From Promethearchaeota archaeon (GTDB taxonomy: Archaea; Asgardarchaeota; Lokiarchaeia; Sigyniarchaeales; SOKP01), in NCBI GenBank assembly GCA_019057795.1, contig JAHLWS010000080.1, positions 32,001-96,000 on the forward strand: a DNA stretch of 64,000 nt, written 5' to 3'. Positions 2,236 through 40,874 of this stretch are shown here, in pieces (position 1 is the first letter of the stretch; every line of letters starts with the position of its first letter). Position numbers and translations under genes: made by a program. The notes under the pieces are model-generated. The model was not told where the DNA came from. It saw nothing but the letters and a program-made list of their open reading frames with translations, and searched no databases.

Positions 2236-2389
2236 ATTACTGATCAGAGTAAGATAGTTCTAATTAAAGTTAAATTAGACATGATCAAATATTTAATATT
2301 GAAATAAGATGATATTTTACTAAGGAATAATAATAGTTGTATCTTCTTTTATTCGATCTAATACGATTTGGGTCTTAATTTCTTCAACA
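2236..2389. repeat. Direct repeat copy 2
   Basis: Pairs with 260-413 at an offset of 1976 nt. Confidence 0.95.
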
Positions 2390-2793
2390 CCGGGAAGATT
2401 TCGCAATTTCTCAATTAGAATCATCGAATCTTCGTGATCCAGACATTTAGCCATGATAAACAAGGGATATTCGCCAGTAACTACATACGCATACTTTATC
2501 TTTTCCATACCTTCAATATGTTCCTTAATGCGTTCCAAAGGCTCAGAAGAGTTTACTCGTAAGGAAGCTATTACCATTTCGCGATATCCTAACTGACGGC
2601 AATCTATTAAAGCTACGTATTTTTTTATAAGTTTTTCTTCTAACCTTACTATTCGAGACCTTATAGCAGTAGGACTTTTTCCAACTTTAACAGAAATCTC
2701 TTTTATTGTAATTTTTGCATCGTTTTGTAGTAATTCTAAAATGTCCTTATCAATTCCATCAATCTCTGGAAGTTTCATGTTTGTTGCTGTCAT
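2320..2793 (-). CDS. Lrp/AsnC family transcriptional regulator
   Basis: IDKDILELLQNDAK HTH plus RAM domain (VTGEY); divergent from the sulfur/Hdr operon. Confidence 0.95.
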   Translation of the reverse strand: MTATNMKLPEIDGIDKDILELLQNDAKITIKEISVKVGKSPTAIRSRIVRLEEKLIKKYVALIDCRQLGYREMVIASLRVNSSEPLERIKEHIEGMEKIKYAYVVTGEYPLFIMAKCLDHEDSMILIEKLRNLPGVEEIKTQIVLDRIKEDTTIIIP

Positions 2794-3088: not shown

Positions 3089-3313
3089 ATGGCAGATATA
3101 ACACTTAATGCAGTAGGAAAAAAATGTCCTATGCCGGTTTTAATGACGAAAAAGGAACTAAAAAAAATGAGTTCAGGACAGACTCTTGAACTTATTGTCG
3201 ACGATACAGGTGCTATAAAAGATGTACCAGCTCTTCTGAATAAAACTGGCGATGAATTATTGGAAACTAAAGAAGATGGGGATCATTTAATATTTATGAT
3301 CCAAAAAGCTTAA
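3089..3313 (+). CDS. tusA: TusA/SirA family sulfur carrier
   Basis: GKKCPMP motif, 74 aa. Confidence 0.92.
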   Translation: MADITLNAVGKKCPMPVLMTKKELKKMSSGQTLELIVDDTGAIKDVPALLNKTGDELLETKEDGDHLIFMIQKA

Positions 3314-3342
3314 GATTAGATTATATGAGGAAAGTATTTGCG

Positions 3343-3711
3343 ATGACATCTTATTCATTCTTTATTAGTACAGAACCTTATAAATTTGAAGCTATTGATT
3401 CTCTAATTGAGATCTGTAAAGCTATGATTAGGAAGGGAAATTCAGTAAAGGGATTATTCTTTTACGGCTCGGGAGTATACAACTTGAAGAAAGACATTAG
3501 TAGTGGCACTTCAATCAGGAACATTCCAAAGAAGTTAGAAGAATTTTGCGGTGAAAATAAGATACCTGTTGTCGGTTGTAGTACGTGGGTTAGTCTTACA
3601 GGCTTAAACGAAAGCAATTTCATCAATGGAGCAACCGAAGAGGGATTAGGGGACTTCTCAAATTGGGCTATAGAATCAGACAAATTAATTGTTTTCGGAA
3701 CGGGGGGCTAA
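3343..3711 (+). CDS. dsrE: DsrE/TusD-like sulfurtransferase
   Basis: EPY, LFFYGSGVY, conserved Cys in VVGCS. Confidence 0.85.
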   Translation: MTSYSFFISTEPYKFEAIDSLIEICKAMIRKGNSVKGLFFYGSGVYNLKKDISSGTSIRNIPKKLEEFCGENKIPVVGCSTWVSLTGLNESNFINGATEEGLGDFSNWAIESDKLIVFGTGG

Positions 3712-3716
3712 AAACT

Positions 3717-4085
3717 ATGGTAGAATCTGTTGTTATTATAACCGATCAATCGCCAACGGGTAAGAATTCTGCTGCTGAAGCGATCCGAATTGGTTCGGGA
3801 TTTGTAGCTCTTGGAGAAATTATTAATTGCCAAATAGTTCTCACTGGAGACGCGGTTTATCTTTTAAACAAAAAAGCAAAACCTACAGCCGTTGGTATGG
3901 ACCCCGTAGATGAAACTATCGAAATGGCTGACTTATCGGACTTAGAATTATATGTTTTAGATAAATCGTTAAAAGATGCCGGTTTAACCGTTGAAGATTT
4001 AATTGAATACGAGAACTTAAAGGTCATTAGTATTGAAGCATTAATCGATTTAATCGAACAAGCAGACACCTGCTTTAGGTTTTAA
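3717..4085 (+). CDS. dsrF: DsrF/TusC-like sulfur relay protein
   Basis: SPTG..AAEAIR, LTGDAVYLL, SLKDAGL, C-terminal ADTCFRF; lies between dsrE and dsrH. Confidence 0.8.
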   Translation: MVESVVIITDQSPTGKNSAAEAIRIGSGFVALGEIINCQIVLTGDAVYLLNKKAKPTAVGMDPVDETIEMADLSDLELYVLDKSLKDAGLTVEDLIEYENLKVISIEALIDLIEQADTCFRF

Positions 4086-4100
4086 CGGGGTAATATAAAA

Positions 4101-4451
4101 ATGACGCAAGAATTGAGTGAATTTAATTTTTTATATTTATTTGGGTTTAGCGAAATTACAGGGAACCATTTAGAGCGATTATTACCAATATTGAAAGGCC
4201 AGATTAAAAAAGGAAGCCAAATTGGGCTCGTTTTGATTCACGATGGGGTGATTGGTATTAATAAGAGAGGCCGAATTACAAAGGCAATGGAAGAGCTTCT
4301 CAGCTTGAAAGTTACATTATATGCGATGATCCCCGATTTGAAAGCCCGTGGAATAGCTTTGGAGCAAACTCACGATAAAATTAAACGAATTGAATACGAC
4401 GACTTAATCGATCTTTTAGATAATAGGCTAAAAATAATATCTTGGATGTAA
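4101..4451 (+). CDS. dsrH: DsrH/TusB-like sulfur relay protein
   Basis: LIHDGV, DLKARG, IEYDDLIDL, C-terminal ISW. Confidence 0.85.
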   Translation: MTQELSEFNFLYLFGFSEITGNHLERLLPILKGQIKKGSQIGLVLIHDGVIGINKRGRITKAMEELLSLKVTLYAMIPDLKARGIALEQTHDKIKRIEYDDLIDLLDNRLKIISWM

Positions 4452-4554
4452 TTAGTCCGAGACAAGAATTAAGATTTTTTTAATAACATATCAAGAGAAA
4501 TTAGTTAAAAATTTAGTAAAAATATAAAAAAAAACAGAAAAAAAAGTGTTTAAA

Positions 4555-4971
4555 ATGGCTGAAAAAATGAGTTTTATTGTAAGTGATAAATCCTTCGAGA
4601 AATTTATGATGGCAACGATTCTTGGGACTACTGGAGCAGCAATGGACACTGAAATGAACTTTTTCTTTACTTTTTGGGGTTTAAACCTCTTAAAAAGAAA
4701 GTTTAAGCCTAAAGCAACTGGCATGCCAACCGGAATGAAAGGGATGGGTGCTATGATGTTTAGGAAAAAGTTAAAGAAATTTGGGATTGATAATCCTTGG
4801 AAATTAATCAAGGACGCTGTTGAAGACGGTAAAATGAAGCTTTATCCATGTCTAATGACTATGGATTTAATGGGTATAAAAAGAGAACAAATGTGGGACT
4901 TTGTTGAAGATCCAATTGGAGCAGCAGGTTTCATGGAAATTAGCGAAGGAGCAAATGTAATATCGTTATAG
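4555..4971 (+). CDS. DsrE2 (DrsE_2) family sulfur-transfer protein
   Basis: FFFTFWGL and YPCLMTMDLMG motifs. Confidence 0.9.
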   Translation: MAEKMSFIVSDKSFEKFMMATILGTTGAAMDTEMNFFFTFWGLNLLKRKFKPKATGMPTGMKGMGAMMFRKKLKKFGIDNPWKLIKDAVEDGKMKLYPCLMTMDLMGIKREQMWDFVEDPIGAAGFMEISEGANVISL

Positions 4972-5038
4972 ATATTACTCTAAATTTTTTTTTTTTTTAT
5001 TATTCAAGATAATTAAACAGTAAAAAAGATGGTAAAAA

Positions 5039-5605
5039 ATGTCTGATACGAAAGAATACCACCGAGAATTTAAAACTAACGAAGATTTTGATAAAGATTA
5101 TTTTAAAAATATAGAAAGAAAGTCTAATATTTGGCAATGCATTCAATGTGGAACATGTACGGCGAGCTGTGAAAGTGGTAGATGGACCGCATTAAAAACT
5201 CGTATGATTATACGAAAAGTTGTTCTTGGAGATTTATCAGTGCTAAGCGATCCTGATATTTGGTTGTGTACTACATGCTATCAATGTTATGAGCGTTGTC
5301 CTCGCGATGTGAGGCCCACAGATGTTATTATGGAATTGAGGAACTACGCAACTAAACTGGGAAATATATCACCAAATCATAGGGCTGTTGTAGGGTACTT
5401 AACAAACTATGGACATGCGGTACCGATAAATGACGAAATAAAACAACGAAGGGTTGAATTAGGATTAGACGAACTTCCTCCCACTGCGTTTAAATTTAAA
5501 CAAGAAGGGGACGGAAAAGATTTGAAGAAATTTGAAGAACATTTGTTTGATCTTCCTCCAGTTAAGGAAATTAAGGAGGAAAAAAAGAAGGAGGAGGAGA
5601 AATAA
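5039..5605 (+). CDS. hdrC: Heterodisulfide reductase subunit C
   Basis: CIQCGTCTASC and WLCTTCYQCYERCPR 2x[4Fe-4S], GHAVPI. Confidence 0.95.
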   Translation: MSDTKEYHREFKTNEDFDKDYFKNIERKSNIWQCIQCGTCTASCESGRWTALKTRMIIRKVVLGDLSVLSDPDIWLCTTCYQCYERCPRDVRPTDVIMELRNYATKLGNISPNHRAVVGYLTNYGHAVPINDEIKQRRVELGLDELPPTAFKFKQEGDGKDLKKFEEHLFDLPPVKEIKEEKKKEEEK

Positions 5606-5608
5606 GTA

Positions 5609-6526
5609 ATGGTAAAAGAAAATACATTTGCGTTTTTTTTAGGGTGTCTCATGCCTAATAGATATCCTGCTATTGAAAAAGCTACGATGTATGTTATGGA
5701 AAAATTAGGTTATACTTTATTAGATATGGAGAGAGCTACATGTTGTCCCGCTCCAGGAGTATTTCGCTCGTTCAACAAATTTGATTGGATGGTGGCAGGT
5801 GCTAGAAACCTCTGTATAGCTGAAAAACTTGATGTGGATATTATTACTGTCTGTAATGGATGTTTTGGAACGCTCCAAGAGATTAACAAACATTTAAAAG
5901 AAAACGAAGAGCATAGGGAATTGGTAAACGAAAAACTGAAACTTCTTGGCGATTATGAGTTTAAAGGAACGATCGATGTCCGACATATTGCCGAAGTGTT
6001 AGGATATGAAGTTGGTCCTTGGGGTATTGAAGAAGTTATAATTAGAAAAGTTAACGCCCGCGCTGCGGTACATTACGGCTGTCACTTTCTAAAACCAACT
6101 AGAATTAGAGAGATTGAAAGCTCTGAGGGACCAACGATCGTAGAAGAGTTTATTGAAGCGTTAGGGGTAGAATCTGTAAGATTTAAAGAACAATTAACTT
6201 GTTGCGGCGCTGGCGGAGGGGTAAAAGCGTACTCTGGCGACGCAAGCATGACGATTTTTGGAGAAAAAATGAAAAATATTGATGAAGTAAAACCTGATTT
6301 TATATTAGATATATGTCCCTTCTGTCATCTCCAATTTGAGACGGGACAAGATTATCTCAATAAAAATAAAGATTGTAATTACGATTATCCAGTTATTCAC
6401 ATTTCGCAACTTGTTGCGTATTGTATGGGGATGGACCAAGAATTTGTTGGTCTTCAATACCAATTAATGGGCAGAGATTACATTTTTGGTCGGCAAGAAA
6501 TCAAAAAAGAAGAGGAGGTCGTGTAA
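5609..6526 (+). CDS. hdrB: Heterodisulfide reductase subunit B
   Basis: FFLGC, TCCPAPG, CNGC, HYGCH, CCGAGGG, CPFCHLQF (two CCG domains). Confidence 0.95.
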   Translation: MVKENTFAFFLGCLMPNRYPAIEKATMYVMEKLGYTLLDMERATCCPAPGVFRSFNKFDWMVAGARNLCIAEKLDVDIITVCNGCFGTLQEINKHLKENEEHRELVNEKLKLLGDYEFKGTIDVRHIAEVLGYEVGPWGIEEVIIRKVNARAAVHYGCHFLKPTRIREIESSEGPTIVEEFIEALGVESVRFKEQLTCCGAGGGVKAYSGDASMTIFGEKMKNIDEVKPDFILDICPFCHLQFETGQDYLNKNKDCNYDYPVIHISQLVAYCMGMDQEFVGLQYQLMGRDYIFGRQEIKKEEEVV

Positions 6527-8563
6527 TTGACTGTTAAAGAAGAAAAAGTAAAGCCAATAGAAGATATTGAAGAAAAAACTGTATTTCAAGATTCAAAAGA
6601 TGAAGAGCCTCGGATTGGCGTTTTCATATGCCATTGCGGGCATAATATTGCTGGAACTGTAGATGTCGCGAAAGTAGCAGAATACGCAGGAACTTTACCC
6701 AATGTGGTAAAAGCAGAGCATTACATGTTTATGTGTTCAAAGCCAGGCGTTCAGATGATTAAGGATTCCATTAAAGAATTAGGAGTTAATAGAACTGTCG
6801 TAGCAAGTTGTTCTAAAAACCAGCACGGCAGAACATTTGCGAGAGCTATCGCTGAAGAGGGTATTAATAAACACCGCCACCAACAAGTTAATATACGGGA
6901 ATATTGTAGTTGGGTTCATAAAAAAGAAGAAGAAAAAGCGACTGCAAAATCGCTTCGTTTGGTAGAAGCTGGAGTTAATCGAGCTCGAAAACTTGACGAT
7001 GTAGAAACAAGGCGAGTTACGACCACTAAAGCAGCTTTGGTTATTGGAGGGGGTATCGCGGGACTCCGATCTGCTCACGATATGGCAGAATTAGGAATAC
7101 CAGTGTTTTTAGTTGAGAAAAACTCTACGATAGGAGGTCATATGACGAGGTTGAATAAAACATTTCCAACCTTAGAGTGTCCTCAATGTTCAATATCTCC
7201 TTTAACTAACGGTGTGGCGAATCATCCATTAATTGAGCTTTATACAAATGCTCAAGTTAAAAATGTTGAGGGCTCGTTAGGAAATTTTGAAATTGAAATC
7301 GAAATTAAACCTCGGTATGTTAAAGATAATTGTACATCTTGTGGTGAGTGCTCCTTACATTGCCCAGTAGAAGTACCAAGCGAATGGGATAAAGGTATGT
7401 CTATACGGAACGCTATTTATAAAGCATATCCTCAAGCAATTCCCGCAACATTCGTACGGGACAAGAAGGCTTGTATTGAGTGTAATACATGTATTAACCT
7501 ATGTCCAGTTCAAGCGATTGATTTTTCGATGCAACCTGAAACTAAAACTGTTAAAGTTGGCTCAATTATAGTTGCTGCGGGTTTTAGCGAATACGATCCT
7601 ACGGAAATTGAACCCTACCACTATGGGCAAGAGGGATACGAAGATGTCATTACTCAATTGAAATTGGAAAGAATGTTATCACCAACTTCTTTAACAAATA
7701 GCGAAGTATTGCGACCATCTGACGGAAAATTTCCTAAAAGCATTGTAATAATTCAATGTGTAGGTAGTAGAAACGACCAAGTCGGCAATCAATATTGTAC
7801 GGGCGTTTGTTGTAAATTTGCGATAAAAAACGCTCGAATCGTAAAAGAAATGTATCCTGACACCGATGTAACGATTTGTTACATTGATATAAGAACTCCT
7901 GGATTAAATTTCGAAGAATTATATAAATCTGCTCAAGAAGTTGGGGTCAGATTCATCAGAGGGAGACCTTCAGAAATCATTAAGGATCCTATTAGTGGAG
8001 AGTTAACAGTTATTGTAGAAGACACTTTGAGCATGACGCCTTTGCAATTGTCAGCTGATTTGGTAGTATTATCAGCAGCTATGGTGCCTCCCGAAGGAAT
8101 AGGGCCGCTAGGTTCTAAACTTCACGTATTACGCTCAAAAGAAGGATTCTTAAAAGAATTTCACATAAAAATGAACCCTACATTAAGTAGCAAAGGAGGA
8201 ATATTTTTAGCAGGTGCGATCCAAGGGCCAAAAGATATTACTGAGACTGTAGCTCACGCGGGAAACGCTGCCGCTCTAGCCGCTGCACCATTGGTAAAAG
8301 GCTACATAGAAAAGGAAATGTTAGTTCCAACGATAGATTACGAATTATGTGTTAATTGTGGAATTTGCAAAACAATTTGTGCACCAGCTGCTATTGATAT
8401 TGACGAAAACGGAAGACCTACAGTCAACGAAGTAGCGTGTAAATCATGCGGCATGTGCATGGCAAGTTGCCCAACGAGTGCAATTCAATTGATTAATTTC
8501 ACAGAGGATCAACTATACGATGAAATAATCGCTGTATCAGGCGGAGGTGCCGTGTGCGAATGA
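6527..8563 (+). CDS. hdrA: Heterodisulfide reductase subunit A (FAD, electron-bifurcating type)
   Basis: GVFICHCG, NIREYCSWVH, IGGGIAG, KTFPTLEC, inserted ferredoxin, IQCVGSR..YC..VCC, C-terminal ferredoxin; TTG start. Confidence 0.96.
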   Translation: MTVKEEKVKPIEDIEEKTVFQDSKDEEPRIGVFICHCGHNIAGTVDVAKVAEYAGTLPNVVKAEHYMFMCSKPGVQMIKDSIKELGVNRTVVASCSKNQHGRTFARAIAEEGINKHRHQQVNIREYCSWVHKKEEEKATAKSLRLVEAGVNRARKLDDVETRRVTTTKAALVIGGGIAGLRSAHDMAELGIPVFLVEKNSTIGGHMTRLNKTFPTLECPQCSISPLTNGVANHPLIELYTNAQVKNVEGSLGNFEIEIEIKPRYVKDNCTSCGECSLHCPVEVPSEWDKGMSIRNAIYKAYPQAIPATFVRDKKACIECNTCINLCPVQAIDFSMQPETKTVKVGSIIVAAGFSEYDPTEIEPYHYGQEGYEDVITQLKLERMLSPTSLTNSEVLRPSDGKFPKSIVIIQCVGSRNDQVGNQYCTGVCCKFAIKNARIVKEMYPDTDVTICYIDIRTPGLNFEELYKSAQEVGVRFIRGRPSEIIKDPISGELTVIVEDTLSMTPLQLSADLVVLSAAMVPPEGIGPLGSKLHVLRSKEGFLKEFHIKMNPTLSSKGGIFLAGAIQGPKDITETVAHAGNAAALAAAPLVKGYIEKEMLVPTIDYELCVNCGICKTICAPAAIDIDENGRPTVNEVACKSCGMCMASCPTSAIQLINFTEDQLYDEIIAVSGGGAVCE

Positions 8564-9012
8564 GTGATTGTGAAACTTCTGACGAATATATTAAAGAGAG
8601 GATTCAAAACATTGTTGTTTTCATGTGTAACGAGTGCGGTCAAGGCTCAGCAAACACCGCTGGTGTCGCTCGAATGTCGTACGACGCTGCAATAAGAATA
8701 ATTAGAGTACAATGCACAGGTCAAATTGGACCCATTCAGATTACGGACGCTTTGAACAATGGAGCCGACGCAGTAGCTTGCGTAGGATGTTGTTTAGGAG
8801 CATGTCATTTCTTTAACGGAAATATTTTATCAATGCACCGAATAAAATTAATGAAAAAGCTTTTTAAGGAATTGGGATATAGCGACCAGTTTGTAAACCA
8901 ATACACGTCGCGAGCTGCTGAAGGTGAAACTTCTGTTGGCGATTTTGAAGACATTATAGATCGATTAACAACTGCAATTATACAAAAGGGGACGATAAAA
9001 GATGGATGTTAG
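8560..9012 (+). CDS. mvhD: MvhD/FlpD [2Fe-2S] adaptor subunit
   Basis: FMCNEC, IRVQCTG, GADAV..VGC..GACHF.NGN; ATGA overlap with hdrA. Confidence 0.9.
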   Translation: MSDCETSDEYIKERIQNIVVFMCNECGQGSANTAGVARMSYDAAIRIIRVQCTGQIGPIQITDALNNGADAVACVGCCLGACHFFNGNILSMHRIKLMKKLFKELGYSDQFVNQYTSRAAEGETSVGDFEDIIDRLTTAIIQKGTIKDGC

Positions 9013-10243
9013 AATTTTTCAATTTAACGGTTGTAATAAATGCTACAATGAAACATTACTACTTAAAGAAGACTCAGAATATAGTATAGAATTCGTCTCT
9101 GATCCTAAAAATTGGAAAGGAGAAAAAGTCGATATTTCGGTAATAACAGGGTATTTAATCCCAGATGACTTAAAGCATTTAAACAAAATTAAAGATAATT
9201 CAGAAAAAGTTATTGCTTATGGAAATTGCGCAGCGACCGGAGGCGTATTTGCTTTAGCAAACCAGAAAGGACACGATGTTACTCCTTTACAAAACTTAAT
9301 TGGAGACTCGCAAAATATCAATGGCTGTTTAGGAGAGATTGAAGAGTTAAAGAATACAATCGATGAGAAGGAAATACATAAACTTAAAAATTTATGCGAA
9401 GTTTGTTCCCGAAAAGCAACTTGCGAATATTTAGAAGAAATAAAGCGACAAATAGAATTAGACGATTCCAGTACTTGTTTTAACGACTTAGGTTTTCTCT
9501 GTAGTGGTTTTATCGCAAAAGAATGTAAAGAGAGATGTATTGATTACAACACTCCTTGTAGGGGCTGTAAGCCAAGCATAGACCGTTCTGGGATTCGAAT
9601 GCTCGGACTGTTCGGAACATTGGCGGGGAATGTAGAGATTGCGACTGAACATTCAGTTAAAGGAGCTACAGATAAGCTTGCAGACGAAGATGACGACTTA
9701 ACTGATGGTTTACCTGATATAGTCGGTAACTTTTTTAGGTTTACACTACCTACTTCTGGTTTACCAAAGGGTAGAATACCTTCGTCAGGAACGCTGTTAG
9801 AAGACCTATTTATTGGTAGGCTAATAGAAGAGATTCCTTTGATAACAGGACTTTTAGGCGGTAGTAAATCGATCTCATTAACGCTTAAATTCATTGAATC
9901 CTACGAAAAAGCGAATGAAATAAAAGTAAGCGAACAAGTCAAAAAATTTCGCAGTGAATTGCTAACATTAGAAGATGAATTGCTAAACGCAATTGATAAA
10001 GAAGATTCTACTAAATATAAAGAAGTCACTGAGAAAATAAGAAAAATTGCCGGGAATATGAATTTATCGAATTTGTATTTTGGTGGTTTCAAAACAAAAA
10101 TTAATGATAGCGATAATTTTGACGATTATAAAACCCATATTTTTGAAATAGTGGAAGGAACCTATAAAAATGGTTCTGTAGAATATAAAATAGATTCAGA
10201 TGGTATTTTAACAGAAATAAAAATAAAAGAGGGATTAGTATGA
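9002..10243 (+). CDS. MvhG-like Fe-S protein (hydrogenase small-subunit fold) with long C-terminal extension
   Basis: GCNKC, AYGNCAATGG, NGC, CEVC, CF..GFLCSG..C...C....PCRGC. Confidence 0.8.
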   Translation: MDVRIFQFNGCNKCYNETLLLKEDSEYSIEFVSDPKNWKGEKVDISVITGYLIPDDLKHLNKIKDNSEKVIAYGNCAATGGVFALANQKGHDVTPLQNLIGDSQNINGCLGEIEELKNTIDEKEIHKLKNLCEVCSRKATCEYLEEIKRQIELDDSSTCFNDLGFLCSGFIAKECKERCIDYNTPCRGCKPSIDRSGIRMLGLFGTLAGNVEIATEHSVKGATDKLADEDDDLTDGLPDIVGNFFRFTLPTSGLPKGRIPSSGTLLEDLFIGRLIEEIPLITGLLGGSKSISLTLKFIESYEKANEIKVSEQVKKFRSELLTLEDELLNAIDKEDSTKYKEVTEKIRKIAGNMNLSNLYFGGFKTKINDSDNFDDYKTHIFEIVEGTYKNGSVEYKIDSDGILTEIKIKEGLV

Positions 10244-12705
10244 GCTTTGAACTATTACAAAAAGAAATTATTGACGCAGGTTTATGCCAAGGTTGTGGTT
10301 TGTGTGTAGGTTATTGCAAGCACGTAGAAATGGAAACACTGCGTCCAGTATTAAAAGATTATTGTATTTTAGAAAGAGAGGGACAAAAATGCGGTAAATG
10401 CTACGAGAATTGTCCTCAAGTAATACAGAAAAAATTCAAAGAAATGCAACCAAAAGGAATGTATTCCTTAAGAAGCACAGACTCCGAAATTTTAGCAAGG
10501 GCTTCAAGTGGTGGATTTGTAACCACAATCGCCAGGCATCTTTTAAAAGAAAAAGAACTGTCTGAAATCGTCATGGTACAAAATATTAACGACTTACCAA
10601 AAGCAAGTATAGTAACAGACCCAGATGATGTTGTTCAAAAAGCTGGGGTTGTATACGGACGATCAGGCGTTTTACAAAAATTAGTGGAGGTAACAGGAGA
10701 AAATTTCGAGCCTTTAGGAATTATTGGAGTTCCCTGCGAAATTAGAGGCGCTGCTGAACTTGAAGAGGAAATGAAAAGAGAAATCCTCAAAATGGGGTTA
10801 TTTTGTAATTCAAGTATTCGAACTGAATATACTGATAGAGGATTAATTCAATCACCGTGCTCTGGTGGATGTCCTTCAGGAGTTGATGCTCGAGGTTATA
10901 TTGCCTTAATCCGTGATGGACATTATTTTGAAGCTGTGGATTTAATACGTGAAAAGAATCCTTTACCCTCTATTTGCGGAAGAATCTGTACGCACGAATG
11001 TGAGCATGGATGCTCATTAATAGGATCAGATACCCCCGTTGCTATTCGAGAATTAAAGAAATTTGTTACCGAATATGAAATTGAACATGGTAAAGCTATA
11101 AGTGCTAAAGACGGCAAAAAACTAGGAAAGAAAGTTGCAATCATAGGTTCTGGACCAGCAGGTTTAACAGCGGGCTATTTTCTATCCCTTAAAGGGTATT
11201 CGCCCACTATTTTCGAAAAAACGGATCAAACAGGTGGAATGTTAAGATTTGGAGTACCTCAATTCAGATTACCTAATTACATACTCGATTACGATGTAGA
11301 GACTATTAAAAATGTTGGAGTGGAAATAGAATTTAACAAACCGTTAGGTCCTAATATGACTATTGAAGATTTAAAAAAAAATGGCTTTGAAGCGATTTTT
11401 ATCGCAACAGGCCAATATAAACCTCGTACATTACATCTTGAAGGTGAGGACCTACCAAATGTATTTGTTGCTATTAATTTCCTTATCGATAGGAAATATC
11501 GCGAATGGACAAAATTAGAAGAATTTAAGGGTAAAACAATTGGTATTATAGGTGGAGGTCCCGTAGCCGTCGATGTAGCTCAAACAGCTCTGAGATTGGG
11601 CGCTGAAAAAGTACACCTTGTAGATATTATGTCTGAAAAAGATCTTGAACTTACATTGAGAGAGATTCCAGATGAAGAATATAAATACATGGAATACCAT
11701 TTTGGAACATCAACCTCTAAAATAACCAAAGGAAAAGGCGATGGATTGATATTAAATAGTCACAAAATTGAATGGGGAGAACCTGACGATACTGGCAGAC
11801 GCCCGCTAAATAAAGTTGAAGGCTCTGATTACGAAATTGCAATCGATTCTATAGTTATTGCGGTTGGACAAACAGTGGATTTCAATTTAATTGATATAGC
11901 TACAAATAACAAACTCAAAAAAGAACGGAACAAGATCGATGTCAATCCTATAACATTTGAAACTAATATTCCAGGTGTTTTTGCTGGCGGGGATATTATC
12001 TCGAACTCAAAAGCCGTTGCTATCGCAGCAATTGCTCACGGAAAAGAAGCTGCAACCTCGATAGACCGTTATTTAAAAGGACAAGATCTTACAACTGGTC
12101 GTTTTAAAGAAGATAGAATGTTTTTCGCTGGACAAAAGAAACCGCCAAAAGACTTTTCTTTAAAACCAGAATCATTAGAAGAAGCTACAGAGAATATTGA
12201 ATGGAACTTTGATGAAATCGATTCGATGTTTAACGAAGACATGGCGTTAGCGGAAGCGAAACGTTGCTTAAGCTGTAACCACTACTGTTTACATTGTCAA
12301 GATTTTCCTGCGATCTATTCGGACTTTACAGCCGGCGAAGTAGGCTCTGAAAAAGGATTTACTACGGTTGTAGCATGGACGGATAGAGGAAAAGAAATTA
12401 TTGAAAACTCAATTAAAAAAGGTTTGTTTGAAGTAGGAAGCGTTAACGAGGAAGAATTAAAGGAAGCTATCAATCTGAAGTCAAAAAGAGAATTAAAAAT
12501 CCTAAATAAAACGCCCAGACAAGAAGTCTTAAATTATATCGTACGCTTAGGACCAGCCACTATTAGTAAAATCGCTGGAATTTTGGATTTAGGAGCGAAA
12601 AAGGTTCGATACGAAGCCTTAAGGTTAGTTCAATTAAACCAGATTGAGATGAAAGTTGAGCCTGGTATGGACGAGCCAATTTTTTCACCTATCTGTGAAG
12701 ATTAA
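10240..12705 (+). CDS. Ferredoxin-FrhB/FdhB protein with an inserted GltD/SudA-like flavoprotein module and C-terminal wHTH
   Basis: N-terminal ferredoxin; SSGGFVT and GVPCEI..GLFC (FrhB); SPC..CP, GRICTHECE.GC, IGSGPAG, GGGPVA, GVFAGGD, EAKRCLSC (GltD); then C..C.DF...SD...G.VGS..GFTTV..TDRG (FrhB C-terminus resumes); HTH tail. Confidence 0.85.
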   Translation: MSFELLQKEIIDAGLCQGCGLCVGYCKHVEMETLRPVLKDYCILEREGQKCGKCYENCPQVIQKKFKEMQPKGMYSLRSTDSEILARASSGGFVTTIARHLLKEKELSEIVMVQNINDLPKASIVTDPDDVVQKAGVVYGRSGVLQKLVEVTGENFEPLGIIGVPCEIRGAAELEEEMKREILKMGLFCNSSIRTEYTDRGLIQSPCSGGCPSGVDARGYIALIRDGHYFEAVDLIREKNPLPSICGRICTHECEHGCSLIGSDTPVAIRELKKFVTEYEIEHGKAISAKDGKKLGKKVAIIGSGPAGLTAGYFLSLKGYSPTIFEKTDQTGGMLRFGVPQFRLPNYILDYDVETIKNVGVEIEFNKPLGPNMTIEDLKKNGFEAIFIATGQYKPRTLHLEGEDLPNVFVAINFLIDRKYREWTKLEEFKGKTIGIIGGGPVAVDVAQTALRLGAEKVHLVDIMSEKDLELTLREIPDEEYKYMEYHFGTSTSKITKGKGDGLILNSHKIEWGEPDDTGRRPLNKVEGSDYEIAIDSIVIAVGQTVDFNLIDIATNNKLKKERNKIDVNPITFETNIPGVFAGGDIISNSKAVAIAAIAHGKEAATSIDRYLKGQDLTTGRFKEDRMFFAGQKKPPKDFSLKPESLEEATENIEWNFDEIDSMFNEDMALAEAKRCLSCNHYCLHCQDFPAIYSDFTAGEVGSEKGFTTVVAWTDRGKEIIENSIKKGLFEVGSVNEEELKEAINLKSKRELKILNKTPRQEVLNYIVRLGPATISKIAGILDLGAKKVRYEALRLVQLNQIEMKVEPGMDEPIFSPICED

Positions 12706-12738
12706 TTAAAAATTCAAAAATAAAAAGAGGTAAAAACT

Positions 12739-12975
12739 ATGAAATTTGATCAAGAATTAAATGTGTGTGGTTTAGTTTGTCCCGTACCTGCGTTGAAAAC
12801 CAAAAAGCAACTCATGAAGATGCGACCCGGTACCGTATTAAAGGTGATAACTGACTATAGACCCGCAAGTGAGTCAGTTCCACGTGATTTAGCAAAGACT
12901 AAACATAAACATTTAGGGACCGATTTTCTCGAAGATGACGAGCAATGGTTAATGTATTTTGAGTCAGTAAAATAA
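12739..12975 (+). CDS. tusA: TusA/SirA family sulfur carrier (second copy)
   Basis: GLVCPVP, LKVITD. Confidence 0.9.
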   Translation: MKFDQELNVCGLVCPVPALKTKKQLMKMRPGTVLKVITDYRPASESVPRDLAKTKHKHLGTDFLEDDEQWLMYFESVK

Positions 12976-12985
12976 AACTACAAAA

Positions 12986-13014
12986 CTTTTTTTTATTTTT
13001 TTTATTTATTTTTT
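12986..13014 (+). terminator. Poly-T terminator of the Hdr operon
   Basis: Consecutive T runs just after the tusA stop. Confidence 0.5.
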
Positions 13015-13185: not shown

Positions 13186-13773
13186 ATGGGAAGAATAAAA
13201 TCTTTTATCCATAAATTATCGGCTGATATAAAAAGTTTAGGTAACAAAGATATTAACTTTATTCAGATGCGTCTTCTAGTGTCAAATATAACTCCTGAAT
13301 TTGAACAAAGTATTAAACAAAAAGTATCTCAAGGGATACTCAAAGCTGAGATTCGGGAAGCAAGCATGGAAGATGTTGATAGTTTAATCAAGCTTCATGA
13401 TCTCGCATGGCATTCGACCCCAATGCCGTATAGACCTTTAGATAAAGAAAATATAGTTAAAATGCTCAAAGATGAAGATATAATCTTCCTAATCGCTAAA
13501 ATTGAAGGAAAAGACAGTGGATTTGCCTTGATCTATTTTACAGGAACAGATAGAAAAATTAGTGTTATCGCGGGTTTGGGAATCCTTCCAGAATTGCAAA
13601 GAAAGGGATTAGGAACTATGTTAGGTTTAGCGAGCTGGGATTACTTTAAGAAGAAGGGAGTGAAAGAATTACGATGTAAGGTGTATAAAGACAATAAAAC
13701 ATCCTACAATTTCATACGAGGTCTCAAGTTCGAGGAATATGATGAGGATTTCGTTCAATGGAAGCTTTTTTAG
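13186..13773 (+). CDS. GNAT family N-acetyltransferase
   Basis: ILPELQRKGLGTML acetyl-CoA motif A, N..S..F...L.F. Confidence 0.9.
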   Translation: MGRIKSFIHKLSADIKSLGNKDINFIQMRLLVSNITPEFEQSIKQKVSQGILKAEIREASMEDVDSLIKLHDLAWHSTPMPYRPLDKENIVKMLKDEDIIFLIAKIEGKDSGFALIYFTGTDRKISVIAGLGILPELQRKGLGTMLGLASWDYFKKKGVKELRCKVYKDNKTSYNFIRGLKFEEYDEDFVQWKLF

Positions 13774-13838
13774 CTGTTAGAGCCAATTTTTTAATTTATT
13801 ACTTTAAAGTTTTTAATGATGTTATAATCATTTAACTT

Positions 13839-14585
13839 ATGGAAAAAGATTCAGAACATTACGGAGATAAATTCCAACAAAAATCTAAATATGTTAGAAA
13901 CAGAATGCCCCAACATATTTTAGATTGGTCGAGAAGGCCGAAAACATATAAAACATATCCGAACGCAATAAAACAAATCGAACTTCCAAAACCTGATTTT
14001 GAGAAAACGATTGATTTTTGGAGAGTAATTAGAAATCGGCACTCAACCAGAAAATTCACTAAAGATCCTATATCTTTAATGGATCTCAGTTTGCTCTTAT
14101 TTGGAATGTCTGGGTTAAACAGGATTTTTCCTCAATTTGCTTTTAGAACGGTACCATCGGCGGGCGGTTTGTATCCAATCGAAATCTACCCTGTAGTTAA
14201 TAATGTTACCAGTTTAGAAAAAGGTGTCTACCATTATAATATTAAAGAACATTCACTAGATTTATTAAAAGAAGGAGATATTAGAGGTAAGGTGGCTGAG
14301 GGGTGTCTTGGTCAAAATATGGCTTTTATTTCAGCTGTGAATTTTATTTGGACGGCTATGATTGGCCGCTCTCAATGGAAGTATTTACAGAGGTGTTATA
14401 GATATATATATTTAGATGCAGGGCACATTGGACAGAATTTTTATCTGATTGCTGAAGCGCTTGGTTTGGGAGCTTGTACTGTTGGAGCAATTTATGATGA
14501 TGAATTGAATATCTTGCTCGAAATCGACGGAATTAATGAAACTTCGATCTATGTTGGTGTATTAGGTAAAAAATTTAAAGAATAA
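13839..14585 (+). CDS. SagB/ThcOx-family nitroreductase-like dehydrogenase
   Basis: RHSTRKF, RTVPSAGGLYP, YRYIYLDAGHIGQN. Confidence 0.92.
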   Translation: MEKDSEHYGDKFQQKSKYVRNRMPQHILDWSRRPKTYKTYPNAIKQIELPKPDFEKTIDFWRVIRNRHSTRKFTKDPISLMDLSLLLFGMSGLNRIFPQFAFRTVPSAGGLYPIEIYPVVNNVTSLEKGVYHYNIKEHSLDLLKEGDIRGKVAEGCLGQNMAFISAVNFIWTAMIGRSQWKYLQRCYRYIYLDAGHIGQNFYLIAEALGLGACTVGAIYDDELNILLEIDGINETSIYVGVLGKKFKE

Positions 14586-39741: not shown

Positions 39742-40874
39742 TGGACGAAGAAAAGATAATTGCGGATGTACAATCCTGTATTGATTGTATGATATGTTTA
39801 GATGTGTGCGATACTTTCGCAGTTACTCAGAACGAACTACTATCTCCAAATGGGAGATTAAAAATTGTTGATAAAATATTTAACAATCAGAACATTACTC
39901 AAGAGGAGATTAAGAGCATCTACACTTGTACGCTATGTGGATTGTGCGACCTTACTTGCCAACAAAGCATTCACATTGCTGACGCAATCCACGCTTCCAA
40001 AATAAAACTAGTAGAAATGGGTTTAGGACCTCTTGAAAATCATAACAAAATAATAAAAAATATTGAAGAACAAGATAATTCCGTTAATGGTAAACGAGAA
40101 GAAAGACTAAACTGGATGTCAGAAAAGTATAGAGAGTCTGAAACTTTTGAGACGGGAGATTCGGATACGTTGTTATTCTTGGGTTGCATGTCATCGTTTC
40201 GAGTAAAAGAAAGCGCAAGTGCTTCTTACGAGCTTTTAAAAGAAGGTAATTTCGATTTTAAGATATTTGAAAAGGAACCTTGTTGTGGAGAATACGCTTA
40301 TTCCGCAGGTAAATTAGACTTTTCAAAGAAAATCTTTAATGAAAATTTTGATCTCTTCAAACAACACGGAATTAAAAACATTATTACTACATGTGGTGGG
40401 TGTTTTTACGCGTTTAATAACTTATATCCAAAATACCTTCAGAATTACGATATTCCAGTTAAACACGTCATCCAAGTTATTCACGAATTAGAAAAGAATG
40501 GCAAATTGAAATTTCAGCAATCTAACGGTACAGTTACTTACCATGATTCTTGTAGGACAGGAAGAAAAATTAAAAACATTGATGTTTACGACGAACCCAG
40601 AGAACTATTAAATTTGTGTGCCACAGTTAACGAGCTCAAGGCAAATAGAGAATTAACTGCGTGTTGTGGGGCGGGTTCTGGAATTAGAGGGGTTGATAGT
40701 AGTTTATCAATAAAAATTGGTAAGAAAATTTTTGACGAATTAGAAACTCGAGATATAATTACATCGTGTCCCTTATGCGTGTTCAATTATAGATACGTAA
40801 ATTACAAAACTCAATCTGAATATAAAACTAAATACATAACCGATTATCTTTTAGAAGCGTTAAAAAAAGAGTGA
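39741..40874 (+). CDS. HdrD/GlpC-like Fe-S oxidoreductase
   Basis: CIDCMICLDVC, CTLCGLCDLTC, two CCG domains, YHDSC; TAATG overlap with activase. Confidence 0.9.
   Translation: MDEEKIIADVQSCIDCMICLDVCDTFAVTQNELLSPNGRLKIVDKIFNNQNITQEEIKSIYTCTLCGLCDLTCQQSIHIADAIHASKIKLVEMGLGPLENHNKIIKNIEEQDNSVNGKREERLNWMSEKYRESETFETGDSDTLLFLGCMSSFRVKESASASYELLKEGNFDFKIFEKEPCCGEYAYSAGKLDFSKKIFNENFDLFKQHGIKNIITTCGGCFYAFNNLYPKYLQNYDIPVKHVIQVIHELEKNGKLKFQQSNGTVTYHDSCRTGRKIKNIDVYDEPRELLNLCATVNELKANRELTACCGAGSGIRGVDSSLSIKIGKKIFDELETRDIITSCPLCVFNYRYVNYKTQSEYKTKYITDYLLEALKKE

Follow-up and report, generated by a model that had tools for sequence, protein, structure and literature searches.

Two kinds of heterodisulfide reductase (Hdr) system are relevant to the locus described here: Hdr complexes with swapped electron donor arms, and Hdr-like enzymes served by the sulfur carriers TusA and DsrE. 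Among the first, FrhBG-HdrA2B2C2 of Methermicoccus shengliensis was named by Kurth et al. 2021 (PMC8630106) and HdrA2B2C2 of Methanosarcina acetivorans was described by Yan et al. 2017 (PMC5296606). The reaction proposed for these complexes involves two reduced coenzyme F420 (F420H2), ferredoxin and a heterodisulfide (PMC8630106, PMC5296606), and TusA and DsrE genes are mentioned in neither paper. In the Elp-Hdr of M. marburgensis, HdrABC is fed by an arm composed of a dead FdhA relic (ElpA), an F420H2 oxidiser of the FdhB type and a homologue of MvhD (PMC12350162). The second kind is exemplified by sHdr-LbpA (PMC11094781, PMC6067878). Here, both kinds are extended by a cluster found in a 64,000 nucleotide stretch of Promethearchaeota archaeon DNA (GCA_019057795.1, contig JAHLWS010000080.1, forward strand, 32,001-96,000), hereafter the window, whose numbering is used for all positions unless another locus is named. 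The cluster consists of 12 plus-strand genes in the order tusA-dsrE-dsrF-dsrH-dsrE2-hdrC-hdrB-hdrA-mvhD-mvhG'-frhB::gltD-tusA, where mvhG' encodes an MvhG-like protein. Gene calls were made from the list of open reading frames and from Pfam and NCBIfam profile scans of their translations, and they bore out all twelve genes, the order and the coordinates given in a first-pass annotation made from the sequence alone. This 12-gene order was found again in about 70 species-level genomes, far more than chance could explain. We tentatively read it, at a little under an even chance, as encoding an Hdr driven by F420H2 or NAD(P)H that would bifurcate electrons and reduce carrier-delivered sulfane sulfur or a disulfide at HdrB.

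Like FrhBG-HdrA2B2C2, the cluster combines a hydrogenase-less HdrCBA and MvhD module with a G-type Fe-S subunit and FrhB, and an orthologous cluster of Methermicoccus type exists (see below). Of the features by which FrhBG-HdrA2B2C2 and Elp-type complexes are recognised, those found are genes for FrhB and MvhD alongside hdrABC, the lack of any active subunit of a hydrogenase or formate dehydrogenase, and CofH in the host. However, it differs from FrhBG-HdrA2B2C2 and HdrA2B2C2 in that hdrA and mvhD are separate genes and FrhB carries a GltD/NfnB insert, and also in that the host has no McrA, ComA or ComE and HdrB has no Arg240 equivalent. As in ElpABC-HdrABC and FdhAB-MvhD-HdrABC (PMC12350162; 7BKB), HdrABC would be fed via MvhD by an F420H2 oxidiser of the FrhB/FdhB type. 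In both cases the donor arm includes a relic subunit that is catalytically dead, ElpA there and the MvhG-like protein here. Unlike in Elp, the relic here derives from a hydrogenase small subunit and not from FdhA, and a GltD module and sulfur carriers have been added. The substrate shown for the Elp and FdhAB complexes is the heterodisulfide of coenzyme M (CoM) and coenzyme B (CoB), CoM-S-S-CoB, whereas we infer the acceptor here. The cluster also shares with MvhADG-HdrABC (5ODC) closely matching HdrA and HdrB, MvhD, an MvhG homologue, the cluster ligands and the bifurcation residues, but it lacks MvhA, has a flavoprotein as donor, has lost one arginine that binds the CoB phosphate and resides in a non-methanogenic host.

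The Hdr subunits are of the methanogen type. HdrA (6527-8563; 678 amino acids, full-length bifurcating type) matches M. wolfeii HdrA (5ODC_A) end-to-end with 652 bits, versus 141 bits for the short sHdrA 6TJR. It contains the FAD domain and the N-terminal, inserted and C-terminal ferredoxin domains, and keeps the equivalents of Glu356 and Lys409, which are key residues of type I HdrA (PMC12054007). Its best NCBIfam match is HdrA2, of which it covers positions 1-640 of 777, and the [2Fe-2S] connector MvhD (8554-9012; PF02662 (FlpD), 106 bits) covers HdrA2 positions 644-770. HdrC (5039-5605; TIGR03290, 177 bits against a cut-off of 160) has eight cysteines in two CX2CX2CX3C [4Fe-4S] motifs. The catalytic subunit HdrB (5609-6526; TIGR03288, 361 bits against a cut-off of 345) matched methanogen HdrB 5ODC_B with 306 bits in a PDB search, and all ten cysteines of its two CCG motifs, which correspond to two non-cubane [4Fe-4S] clusters, are invariant in the orthologues. 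With the match of HdrB to 5ODC_B and the large difference between the two HdrA matches, the distinction from sHdr drawn in the first-pass annotation holds. HdrB is at best 43% identical to its paralogues in the same genome, and it is closer to methanogen HdrB than to them or to the representative of any other 50% cluster. When it was compared with 1.84 billion representative sequences, its own 50% cluster was followed by matches of at most 44% identity, the one match at 49% being a fragment; canonical methanogen HdrB did not appear separately in this search and was presumably merged into the same 50% cluster. The host genome encodes about 25 CCG-domain proteins and at least 12 HdrA paralogues, and the Hdr of this cluster is therefore one of many. 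Another CCG-domain protein, 22% identical to HdrB, is encoded in the window itself (40170-40784; open frame of 378 amino acids).

Two other identities were considered and rejected. The cluster shares with sHdr-LbpA (PMC11094781, PMC6067878) an Hdr-type complex encoded with TusA and DsrE-family carriers, which in sHdr-LbpA deliver sulfane sulfur, and its DsrE2/3-like protein shares PF13686. However, sHdr systems have two hdrC/hdrB sets, a short non-bifurcating sHdrA and obligatory lipoate-binding proteins, and are expected to work in the direction of oxidation. In the window there is one hdrC and one hdrB, the HdrA has 678 amino acids and no LbpA is encoded in the cluster. Indeed, profile scans found no lipoate-binding protein among the cluster genes, and GcvH-family genes are present only on two other contigs of the genome, C82 and C73. 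FlxABCD-HdrABC, the name used for Loki in the paper on strain MK-D1 (PMC7015854), does not apply either, as the donor genes encode an MvhG-like protein and FrhB::GltD and not FlxABC.

The donor arm begins with the MvhG-like protein (9002-10243; Oxidored_q6; 413 amino acids), a hydrogenase small subunit without a large subunit. It aligns with MvhG of 9SW2 and 5ODC over residues 22-256, contains 13 cysteines and ends in a tail of about 155 amino acids that has no Pfam match. No NiFe large subunit was found in the cluster by profile scans, two being encoded elsewhere in the genome, and the description of the cluster as hydrogenase-less is correct. The next gene (10240-12705) encodes an 821 amino acid protein in which the Pfam domains follow the order Fer4, FrhB_N, Fer4_20, Pyr_redox_2 and FrhB_C, with a GltD/NfnB-type NAD(P)H flavoprotein module nested within FrhB at residues 205-601. 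The protein matches the Nfn-type chain 9N5U with 309 bits, its inserted part resembling NfnB/GltD flavoproteins, and the FrhB parts match 8RJA and 8RIU, F420 modules that are joined to other enzymes. Judged by its resemblance to FrhB, Elp and Nfn modules, the arm would take its electrons from F420H2 and/or NAD(P)H, and the insert suggests that NAD(P)H serves as an additional one. FrhB with a nested GltD module is found in most Lokiarchaeia. A plain FrhB, in some cases with a winged-helix-like tail, takes its place in Thorarchaeota (347-356 amino acids), in two Loki-type loci and in the Methermicoccus-type cluster (exchanged subunits are at L104:10781-11824, L039:13704-14846 and L115:14520-15701), and in Harpocratesius FrhB is replaced by a 142 amino acid ferredoxin with two clusters (L080:13714-14142). 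Thus, the donor side varies while Hdr, TusA2 and the carriers stay constant, which we count in favour of carrier-delivered sulfur as the acceptor.

To follow the link between hdr and carrier genes, 77 loci were retrieved with HdrA from species-representative genomes and the window's proteins were mapped onto them. In Lokiarchaeia, the 12-gene order is identical nearly throughout. All five upstream carrier genes are present in 45 of the 46 Lokiarchaeia loci with enough flanking sequence, the sole exception being MK-D1, which has a divergent TusB that is annotated in the published gene table, and all four downstream genes are present in 54/58 such loci. The position of genes outside the cluster is not conserved. 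Two other gene orders were found. Thorarchaeota have hdrC-hdrB-hdrA-mvhD-mvhG'-frhB-tusA-dsrE-dsrF-dsrH, in which neighbouring genes are no more than 15 nucleotides apart. A 263 kb metagenome contig carries dsrE-dsrE-hdrC-hdrB-hdrA-mvhD-mvhG'-frhB-tusA, and this contig is here called Methermicoccus-type, as it encodes a lysyl-tRNA synthetase that shares 93% identity with the enzyme of the methanogen Methermicoccus shengliensis. The HdrBs of Lokiarchaeia, Thorarchaeota and the Methermicoccus-type cluster form one clade (support 0.989) apart from the paralogues in the window's genome; the tree was built without canonical methanogen HdrB and does not place the carrier-linked HdrB relative to those. 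The co-conservation of Tus/Dsr and hdr genes in three gene orders, in Lokiarchaeia, Thorarchaeota and a Methermicoccus-type methanogen, supports a functional tie between Hdr and the carriers.

The distribution of the cluster is patchy. Full-length orthologues of the MvhG-like protein were found in 79 of 400 Asgard genomes surveyed, which belong to the window's family, to the MK-D1 family and, in seven cases, to another class that is recognisable as Thorarchaeota by its protein names. Those of the MK-D1 family comprise MK-D1 itself and two further genomes in a single contig, one of which agrees with Harpocratesius in its coordinates. About 24 of the 41 species of the window's own genus carry the cluster, and some 100%-complete genomes do not. 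When five near-complete genomes without the MvhG-like gene were inspected, the HdrB orthologue was absent from all five. Three of them also lack TusA2 and the DsrE2-like gene, one (G249) retains just a tusA and dsrE2-like pair, and one resembles an assembly break. Hdr and the carriers have mostly been gained and lost together, this co-absence being a trend and not a statistic since the relatives are not independent.

The possibility that the sulfur-relay genes are mere neighbours that serve tRNA thiolation or cofactor synthesis, with synteny reflecting common descent, is very unlikely on this evidence. The linkage has outlasted three rearrangements across two phyla, and Hdr and carriers are both absent from three complete relatives. 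The G249 pair without Hdr can be cited for such a role, as can the database names, which are those of tRNA 2-thiouridine proteins, and the T-runs that part the units in Lokiarchaeia (see below). However, one tusA sits inside the hdr unit, and the classical partner for tRNA thiolation, TusE/DsrC, is absent: PF04358 has no match in the host genome, which is estimated to be 100% complete (4.95 Mb in 87 contigs, 7.5% contamination). The first-pass annotation had named a role restricted to tRNA thiolation as a finding that would overturn its interpretation, and the missing partner speaks against such a role. Housekeeping functions also have other candidates in this genome. One TusA gene lies beside a cysteine desulfurase gene (contig C54) and one beside a gene for a TsuA/YeeE transporter (C58). 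A second dsrE-dsrF-dsrH set, 40-48% identical to that in the window, is on contig C79 (L101:420-6730) together with genes for an FTR1 iron permease and one more DsrE-like protein, and a gene for a 339 amino acid PP-loop ATPase-like protein is found about 5 kb upstream of this set, which may be a housekeeping relay. Matches to PF03054 (MnmA) in the host score 22-30 bits, which is a nonspecific range, as all 14 controls also match. In three other genomes (L043, L062 and L076), the second DsrEFH set is just downstream of the hdr cluster.

The first-pass annotation described the cluster as a single tightly packed operon and flagged a poly-T run as a possible break. This run is real, a T14 at 4985-4998 between dsrE2 and hdrC, and it is conserved: the dsrE2-hdrC spacer has a T-run of at least six in 58/60 orthologues, with a median run of 10 and a median gap of 53 nucleotides. 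Oligo-T is the usual archaeal terminator. A T7 run that may also be a terminator lies 3' of dsrH (4475-4481), and runs of at least six follow dsrH in 37/53 orthologous spacers. By comparison, T-runs have a median length of only 2 in the spacers frhB-tusA2 and tusA1-dsrE, where GAGG is found as a ribosome-binding site. As the T-runs after dsrE2 and dsrH have been kept, there are probably three transcription units in Lokiarchaeia, namely tusA-dsrEFH, dsrE2 and hdrCBA-mvhD-mvhG'-frhB::gltD-tusA, and the single operon is probably wrong for this group. The second tusA is preceded by a 33 nucleotide spacer with GAGG and without a T-run, and is followed by runs of T8, T8 and T6 (12987-13014). From this layout it would belong to the hdr unit, with the strong T-rich stop as the predicted end. 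In MK-D1, all genes of the cluster are expressed, at 182-348 reads per kilobase per million mapped reads, an ordinary level in that data set (Supplementary Table 3, PMC7015854), and the paper lists them by automatic names only. A gene for an Lrp/AsnC-family regulator with HTH_AsnC-type and AsnC_trans_reg domains (2320-2793, minus strand) is divergent from tusA1. It keeps this place in Lokiarchaeia loci, in MK-D1 it sits between dsrE2 and hdrC, and in Thorarchaeota a distant homologue is upstream of hdrC.

The identity of the upstream proteins as sulfur carriers, as first annotated, is upheld by their active-site cysteines. TusA1 (3089-3313; PF01206, 84 bits) has a CPxP motif in which Cys13 is kept in 54/54 orthologues, and it is a single-cysteine protein in 47 of them. 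In the DsrE/TusD-like subunit (3325-3711; PF02635), Cys85 aligns with the active Cys78 of Allochromatium vinosum DsrE (2HY5_A) and is kept in 55/55 orthologues. Cys56 of the DsrF/TusC-like subunit (3663-4085, probable start 3717; PF02635) is kept in 55/56. Both subunits score far below the cut-offs of the NCBIfam TusD and TusC equivalogs (TIGR03012 and TIGR03010, respectively) and are therefore distant members. The DsrE2/DsrE3-like single-cysteine carrier (4546-4971; COG2210; PF13686, 86 bits) keeps Cys102 in 61/61 orthologues; it is not an equivalog of NCBIfam DsrE2 (56 bits against a cut-off of 210), and its best solved relative is 2QS7. The DsrH/TusB-like subunit (4101-4451; PF04077; TIGR03011, 51 bits against a cut-off of 49.2) has no cysteine in any of 56 orthologues. 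A. vinosum DsrH has a conserved cysteine, which DsrH here lacks. The cluster thus resembles the TusA-DsrEFH-DsrC relay (PMC10861901) in having a DsrEFH-type heterotrimer with the DsrE active cysteine, but differs from it in that the genome and cluster contain no DsrC/TusE, DsrAB or DsrMK and DsrH has no cysteine.

The carrier encoded in the hdr unit, TusA2 (12739-12975; PF01206, 67 bits; Cys10 and Cys14), is 85-94% identical within the family and as conserved as HdrB. Cys14 is kept in 67/67 orthologues, and 65 of these have a second cysteine. Its location depends on the lineage: proteins of the window's family have it at position 9/10, those of the MK-D1 family and of Thorarchaeota at position 76, and a few have both. 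The Methermicoccus-type TusA is 46% identical to TusA2 and has Cys14 only. A word-indexed search with TusA2 returned Asgard proteins only and missed this Methermicoccus protein, so it is uninformative on absence elsewhere. A complex of HdrB, HdrC and TusA2 predicted from our own alignments scored 0.01 (mark 0.32), which is evidence neither way.

TusA1 and TusA2 weakly match models of YedF, a protein of selenium metabolism. It is conceivable that the carriers traffic selenium and that Hdr reduces Se-S or Se-Se species, since Lokiarchaeia have large selenoproteomes and bacterial DsrE-like selenoproteins exist (PMC13188914). However, the YedF scores are all below the cut-off (51 versus 79 bits), selD and yedE were not seen in the cluster, and the active residues are all cysteines with no in-frame TGA. 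We regard selenium as extremely improbable here.

The host, a lokiarchaeon, is non-methanogenic, as the first-pass annotation had presumed: profile searches of its genome found no McrA or ComA, no ComE above the cut-off and no DsrA. F420 synthesis is represented by CofH (461 bits, cut-off 374), beside whose gene lies a CofG-like one. In the solved M. wolfeii HdrB, CoM and CoB are contacted by Gly46, Gly198, Arg14, Arg201, Arg240 and Phe233; the three arginines bind CoB, and Arg240 is a ligand of its phosphate (PMC13261682). The window's HdrB keeps the equivalents of Gly46, Gly198, Arg14 and Phe233, while Arg201 is replaced by Lys206 and Arg240 by Thr245. Every Asgard orthologue has Thr, Ser or Gly in place of Arg240, and the equivalent of Arg201 is Lys in Lokiarchaeia, Arg in some Thorarchaeota and Leu in Harpocratesius. 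The loss of Arg240 is the clearest sign in the sequence that Asgard HdrB no longer binds CoB as such. The Methermicoccus-type HdrB retains both of these arginines and all CoB-binding arginines, and it is nevertheless encoded with TusA and DsrE. As this methanogen has CoM and CoB together with the same Hdr and carriers, the carrier link is independent of a lack of CoM/CoB, and the argument that such a lack forces a protein substrate is weakened.

These observations bear on the main rival, in which HdrB reduces a small-molecule heterodisulfide, an analogue of CoM-S-S-CoB, and TusA and DsrE are accessory, whether in sulfur supply for the thiol cofactor, in persulfide stripping or in service of the non-cubane clusters. 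The methanogen orthologue with its full CoB site and its carriers favours this explanation, as does the rest of the HdrB pocket, which resembles that of methanogens: its CoM-side glycines are in place, as is Phe233 in the lipophilic tunnel. Methanogen Hdr also tolerates an altered CoB head group (PMC13261682). However, Arg240 has been lost in every Asgard orthologue, ComA and ComE are missing, a candidate thiol is not known in Asgard archaea, and a small heterodisulfide leaves TusA2, with its second cysteine, unexplained as an invariant member of the hdr unit. We therefore consider this rival somewhat unlikely, though a serious contender. The more specific proposal that Asgard archaea have replaced CoM-S-S-CoB by carrier-bound sulfane sulfur as the acceptor of high potential, in which case HdrB would act on TusA2 bearing a persulfide or, across its two cysteines, an intramolecular trisulfide, loaded via TusA1, DsrEFH and the DsrE2/3-like protein, is possible but falls on the doubtful side.

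Returning to carrier-delivered sulfur as the acceptor, the cluster product would be a cytoplasmic heterodisulfide reductase that carries out flavin-based electron bifurcation, with a donor arm in which a hydrogenase relic (MvhD and the MvhG-like Fe-S subunit) is connected to a flavoprotein of the FrhB type. Electrons supplied as hydride by F420H2 and/or NAD(P)H would pass through the Fe-S chain to MvhD and on to the HdrA flavin, where they would be split between ferredoxin and, via HdrC, the two non-cubane clusters of HdrB. The acceptor there would most likely be an S-S bond formed from sulfane sulfur handled by TusA1, DsrEFH, the DsrE2/3-like protein and above all TusA2, the most likely last carrier. 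It might take the form of a carrier persulfide, polysulfide or trisulfide, or else of a small thiol persulfide that the carriers load, and the product would be H2S. Direct action of HdrB on a protein-bound persulfide is a testable candidate and not proven. DsrK of DsrMKJOP, a CCG-domain subunit of the HdrB/D type that reduces a protein-bound trisulfide, is a precedent. In net terms, such an enzyme would drain F420H2/NAD(P)H in a sulfur-dependent way and provide reduced ferredoxin as well, and it could possibly run in the reverse, confurcating direction.

Several points weigh against this proposal. The cluster is absent from several complete congeners and is not core energy metabolism. What is preserved of the HdrB pocket would be a better fit for a small alkyl thiol than for a cysteine on a protein surface, and the Methermicoccus-type orthologue, with full arginines, TusA and two DsrE proteins in a host with CoM and CoB, indicates that the carriers need not be the substrate. 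To judge from the T-runs, hdr and the carriers upstream of it are probably transcribed separately in Lokiarchaeia. The cluster of Harpocratesius contains genes for a cysteine desulfurase (Aminotran_5) and a ThiF-family protein between dsrEFH and the dsrE2-like gene (L080:4018-6593), which hints at biosynthetic sulfur trafficking. Reduction of persulfide or S0, at about -270 mV, exerts a much weaker pull than that of CoM-S-S-CoB, at about -140 mV, and bifurcation from NAD(P)H to ferredoxin would then be marginal. Finally, both bifurcation and the acceptor are deduced from comparative sequence data and not from biochemistry. In Harpocratesius, a further DsrE gene follows tusA2 (L080:14500-14889).

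The same desulfurase and ThiF genes, and the thermodynamics of persulfide couples, which favour confurcation, are consistent with the opposite direction, in which sulfide, carrier thiol and reduced ferredoxin would be converted to F420H2/NAD(P)H and a carrier persulfide that feeds biosynthesis. Hdr complexes with FrhB have been proposed to confurcate in anaerobic methanotrophic (ANME) archaea (PMC9012536). However, a cysteine desulfurase encoded beside a TusA is already available in the host, reduced ferredoxin is costly to spend on sulfur activation, and the cluster is missing from complete relatives that still must build Fe-S clusters. We consider that this direction is unlikely.

A second link between Hdr and sulfur carriers is present in the same genome. 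On contig C60 (L103:195-6685), minus strand genes for DsrE (120 amino acids), TsuA/YeeE (357 amino acids) and TusA (77 amino acids) are back to back with hydrogenase-hdr genes that encode an MvhG-like protein (438 amino acids), a NiFe large subunit (434 amino acids), HdrC and HdrB, without hdrA or mvhD. The HdrCB encoded there is a distant paralogue of that in the window, and MK-D1 has neighbours of the same type in another order (L114:3655-10508). As two unrelated HdrB lineages adjoin TusA and DsrE genes in the same organisms, a chance association of HdrB with these carriers is unlikely. In the two Lokiarchaeia-type loci with plain FrhB (L039:15233-16639 and L041:8033-9400), an extra hdrC-hdrB pair is found 3' of tusA2, and the extra HdrBs group in the tree with the hydrogenase-linked HdrB of the C60 type. 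Both sulfur-linked Hdr systems are thus adjacent in these loci.

In the full-text literature, the only report found that connects TusA/DsrE with a bifurcating HdrABC in archaea is the preprint on Nerearchaeum marumarumayae (10.1101/2025.07.22.663070), where a figure legend has, as a hypothesis, Hdr of a Promethearchaeaceae isolate reducing sulfur species by way of persulfides that TusA and DsrE carry, coupled to a group 3c NiFe hydrogenase. This model, which is tied to the hydrogenase and to TsuA, fits the C60-type genes and not the hydrogenase-less cluster in the window. With the donor arm known (PMC8630106) and Hdr action on carrier persulfides already proposed, the first-pass description of a candidate new system was overstated. 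We conclude that the observation is real and strongly conserved, and that its interpretation is reasonable and testable, partly supported by the comparative evidence and not wholly new.

The substrate of HdrABC in organisms that do not make methane is a long-standing question that bears on the electron balance of Asgard archaea. These are the closest known relatives of eukaryotes, and hydrogen and sulfur syntrophies have been invoked for eukaryogenesis. If reduction of carrier-delivered sulfur is confirmed, a bifurcating persulfide or sulfur reductase would be added to anaerobic bioenergetics, and fermenting Lokiarchaeia would own an energy-conserving cytoplasmic sulfur or polysulfide reductase that uses F420H2/NAD(P)H to gain extra reduced ferredoxin. 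Methanogen Hdr, sHdr of sulfur oxidisers and DsrC/DsrK chemistry, now treated apart, would be linked, and the carrier link in a methanogen would mean that coupling of Hdr to carriers predates the split in substrate use. The cluster singles out TusA2, DsrEFH and the DsrE2/3-like protein as concrete candidates that are small and can be expressed, together with one diagnostic residue change in HdrB, and as cultured hosts exist in MK-D1 and L. ossiferum, the question can be addressed at the bench.

Other genes near the cluster and elsewhere in the host were also recorded. Just upstream of the gene for the Lrp/AsnC regulator, a MazE/AbrB-type antitoxin and a PIN-domain toxin are encoded as a pair (1483-2188). 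Downstream of the cluster (13186-14585) are genes for a GNAT acetyltransferase and a SagB-type dehydrogenase of the nitroreductase family, and the SagB-like gene is found near the cluster in some other genomes too, at a variable distance. Contig C82 (32178-40963) carries an hdrA-mvhD-mvhG-NiFe large subunit array that represents a canonical Mvh-type hydrogenase, with a GcvH-family gene about 4 kb downstream.

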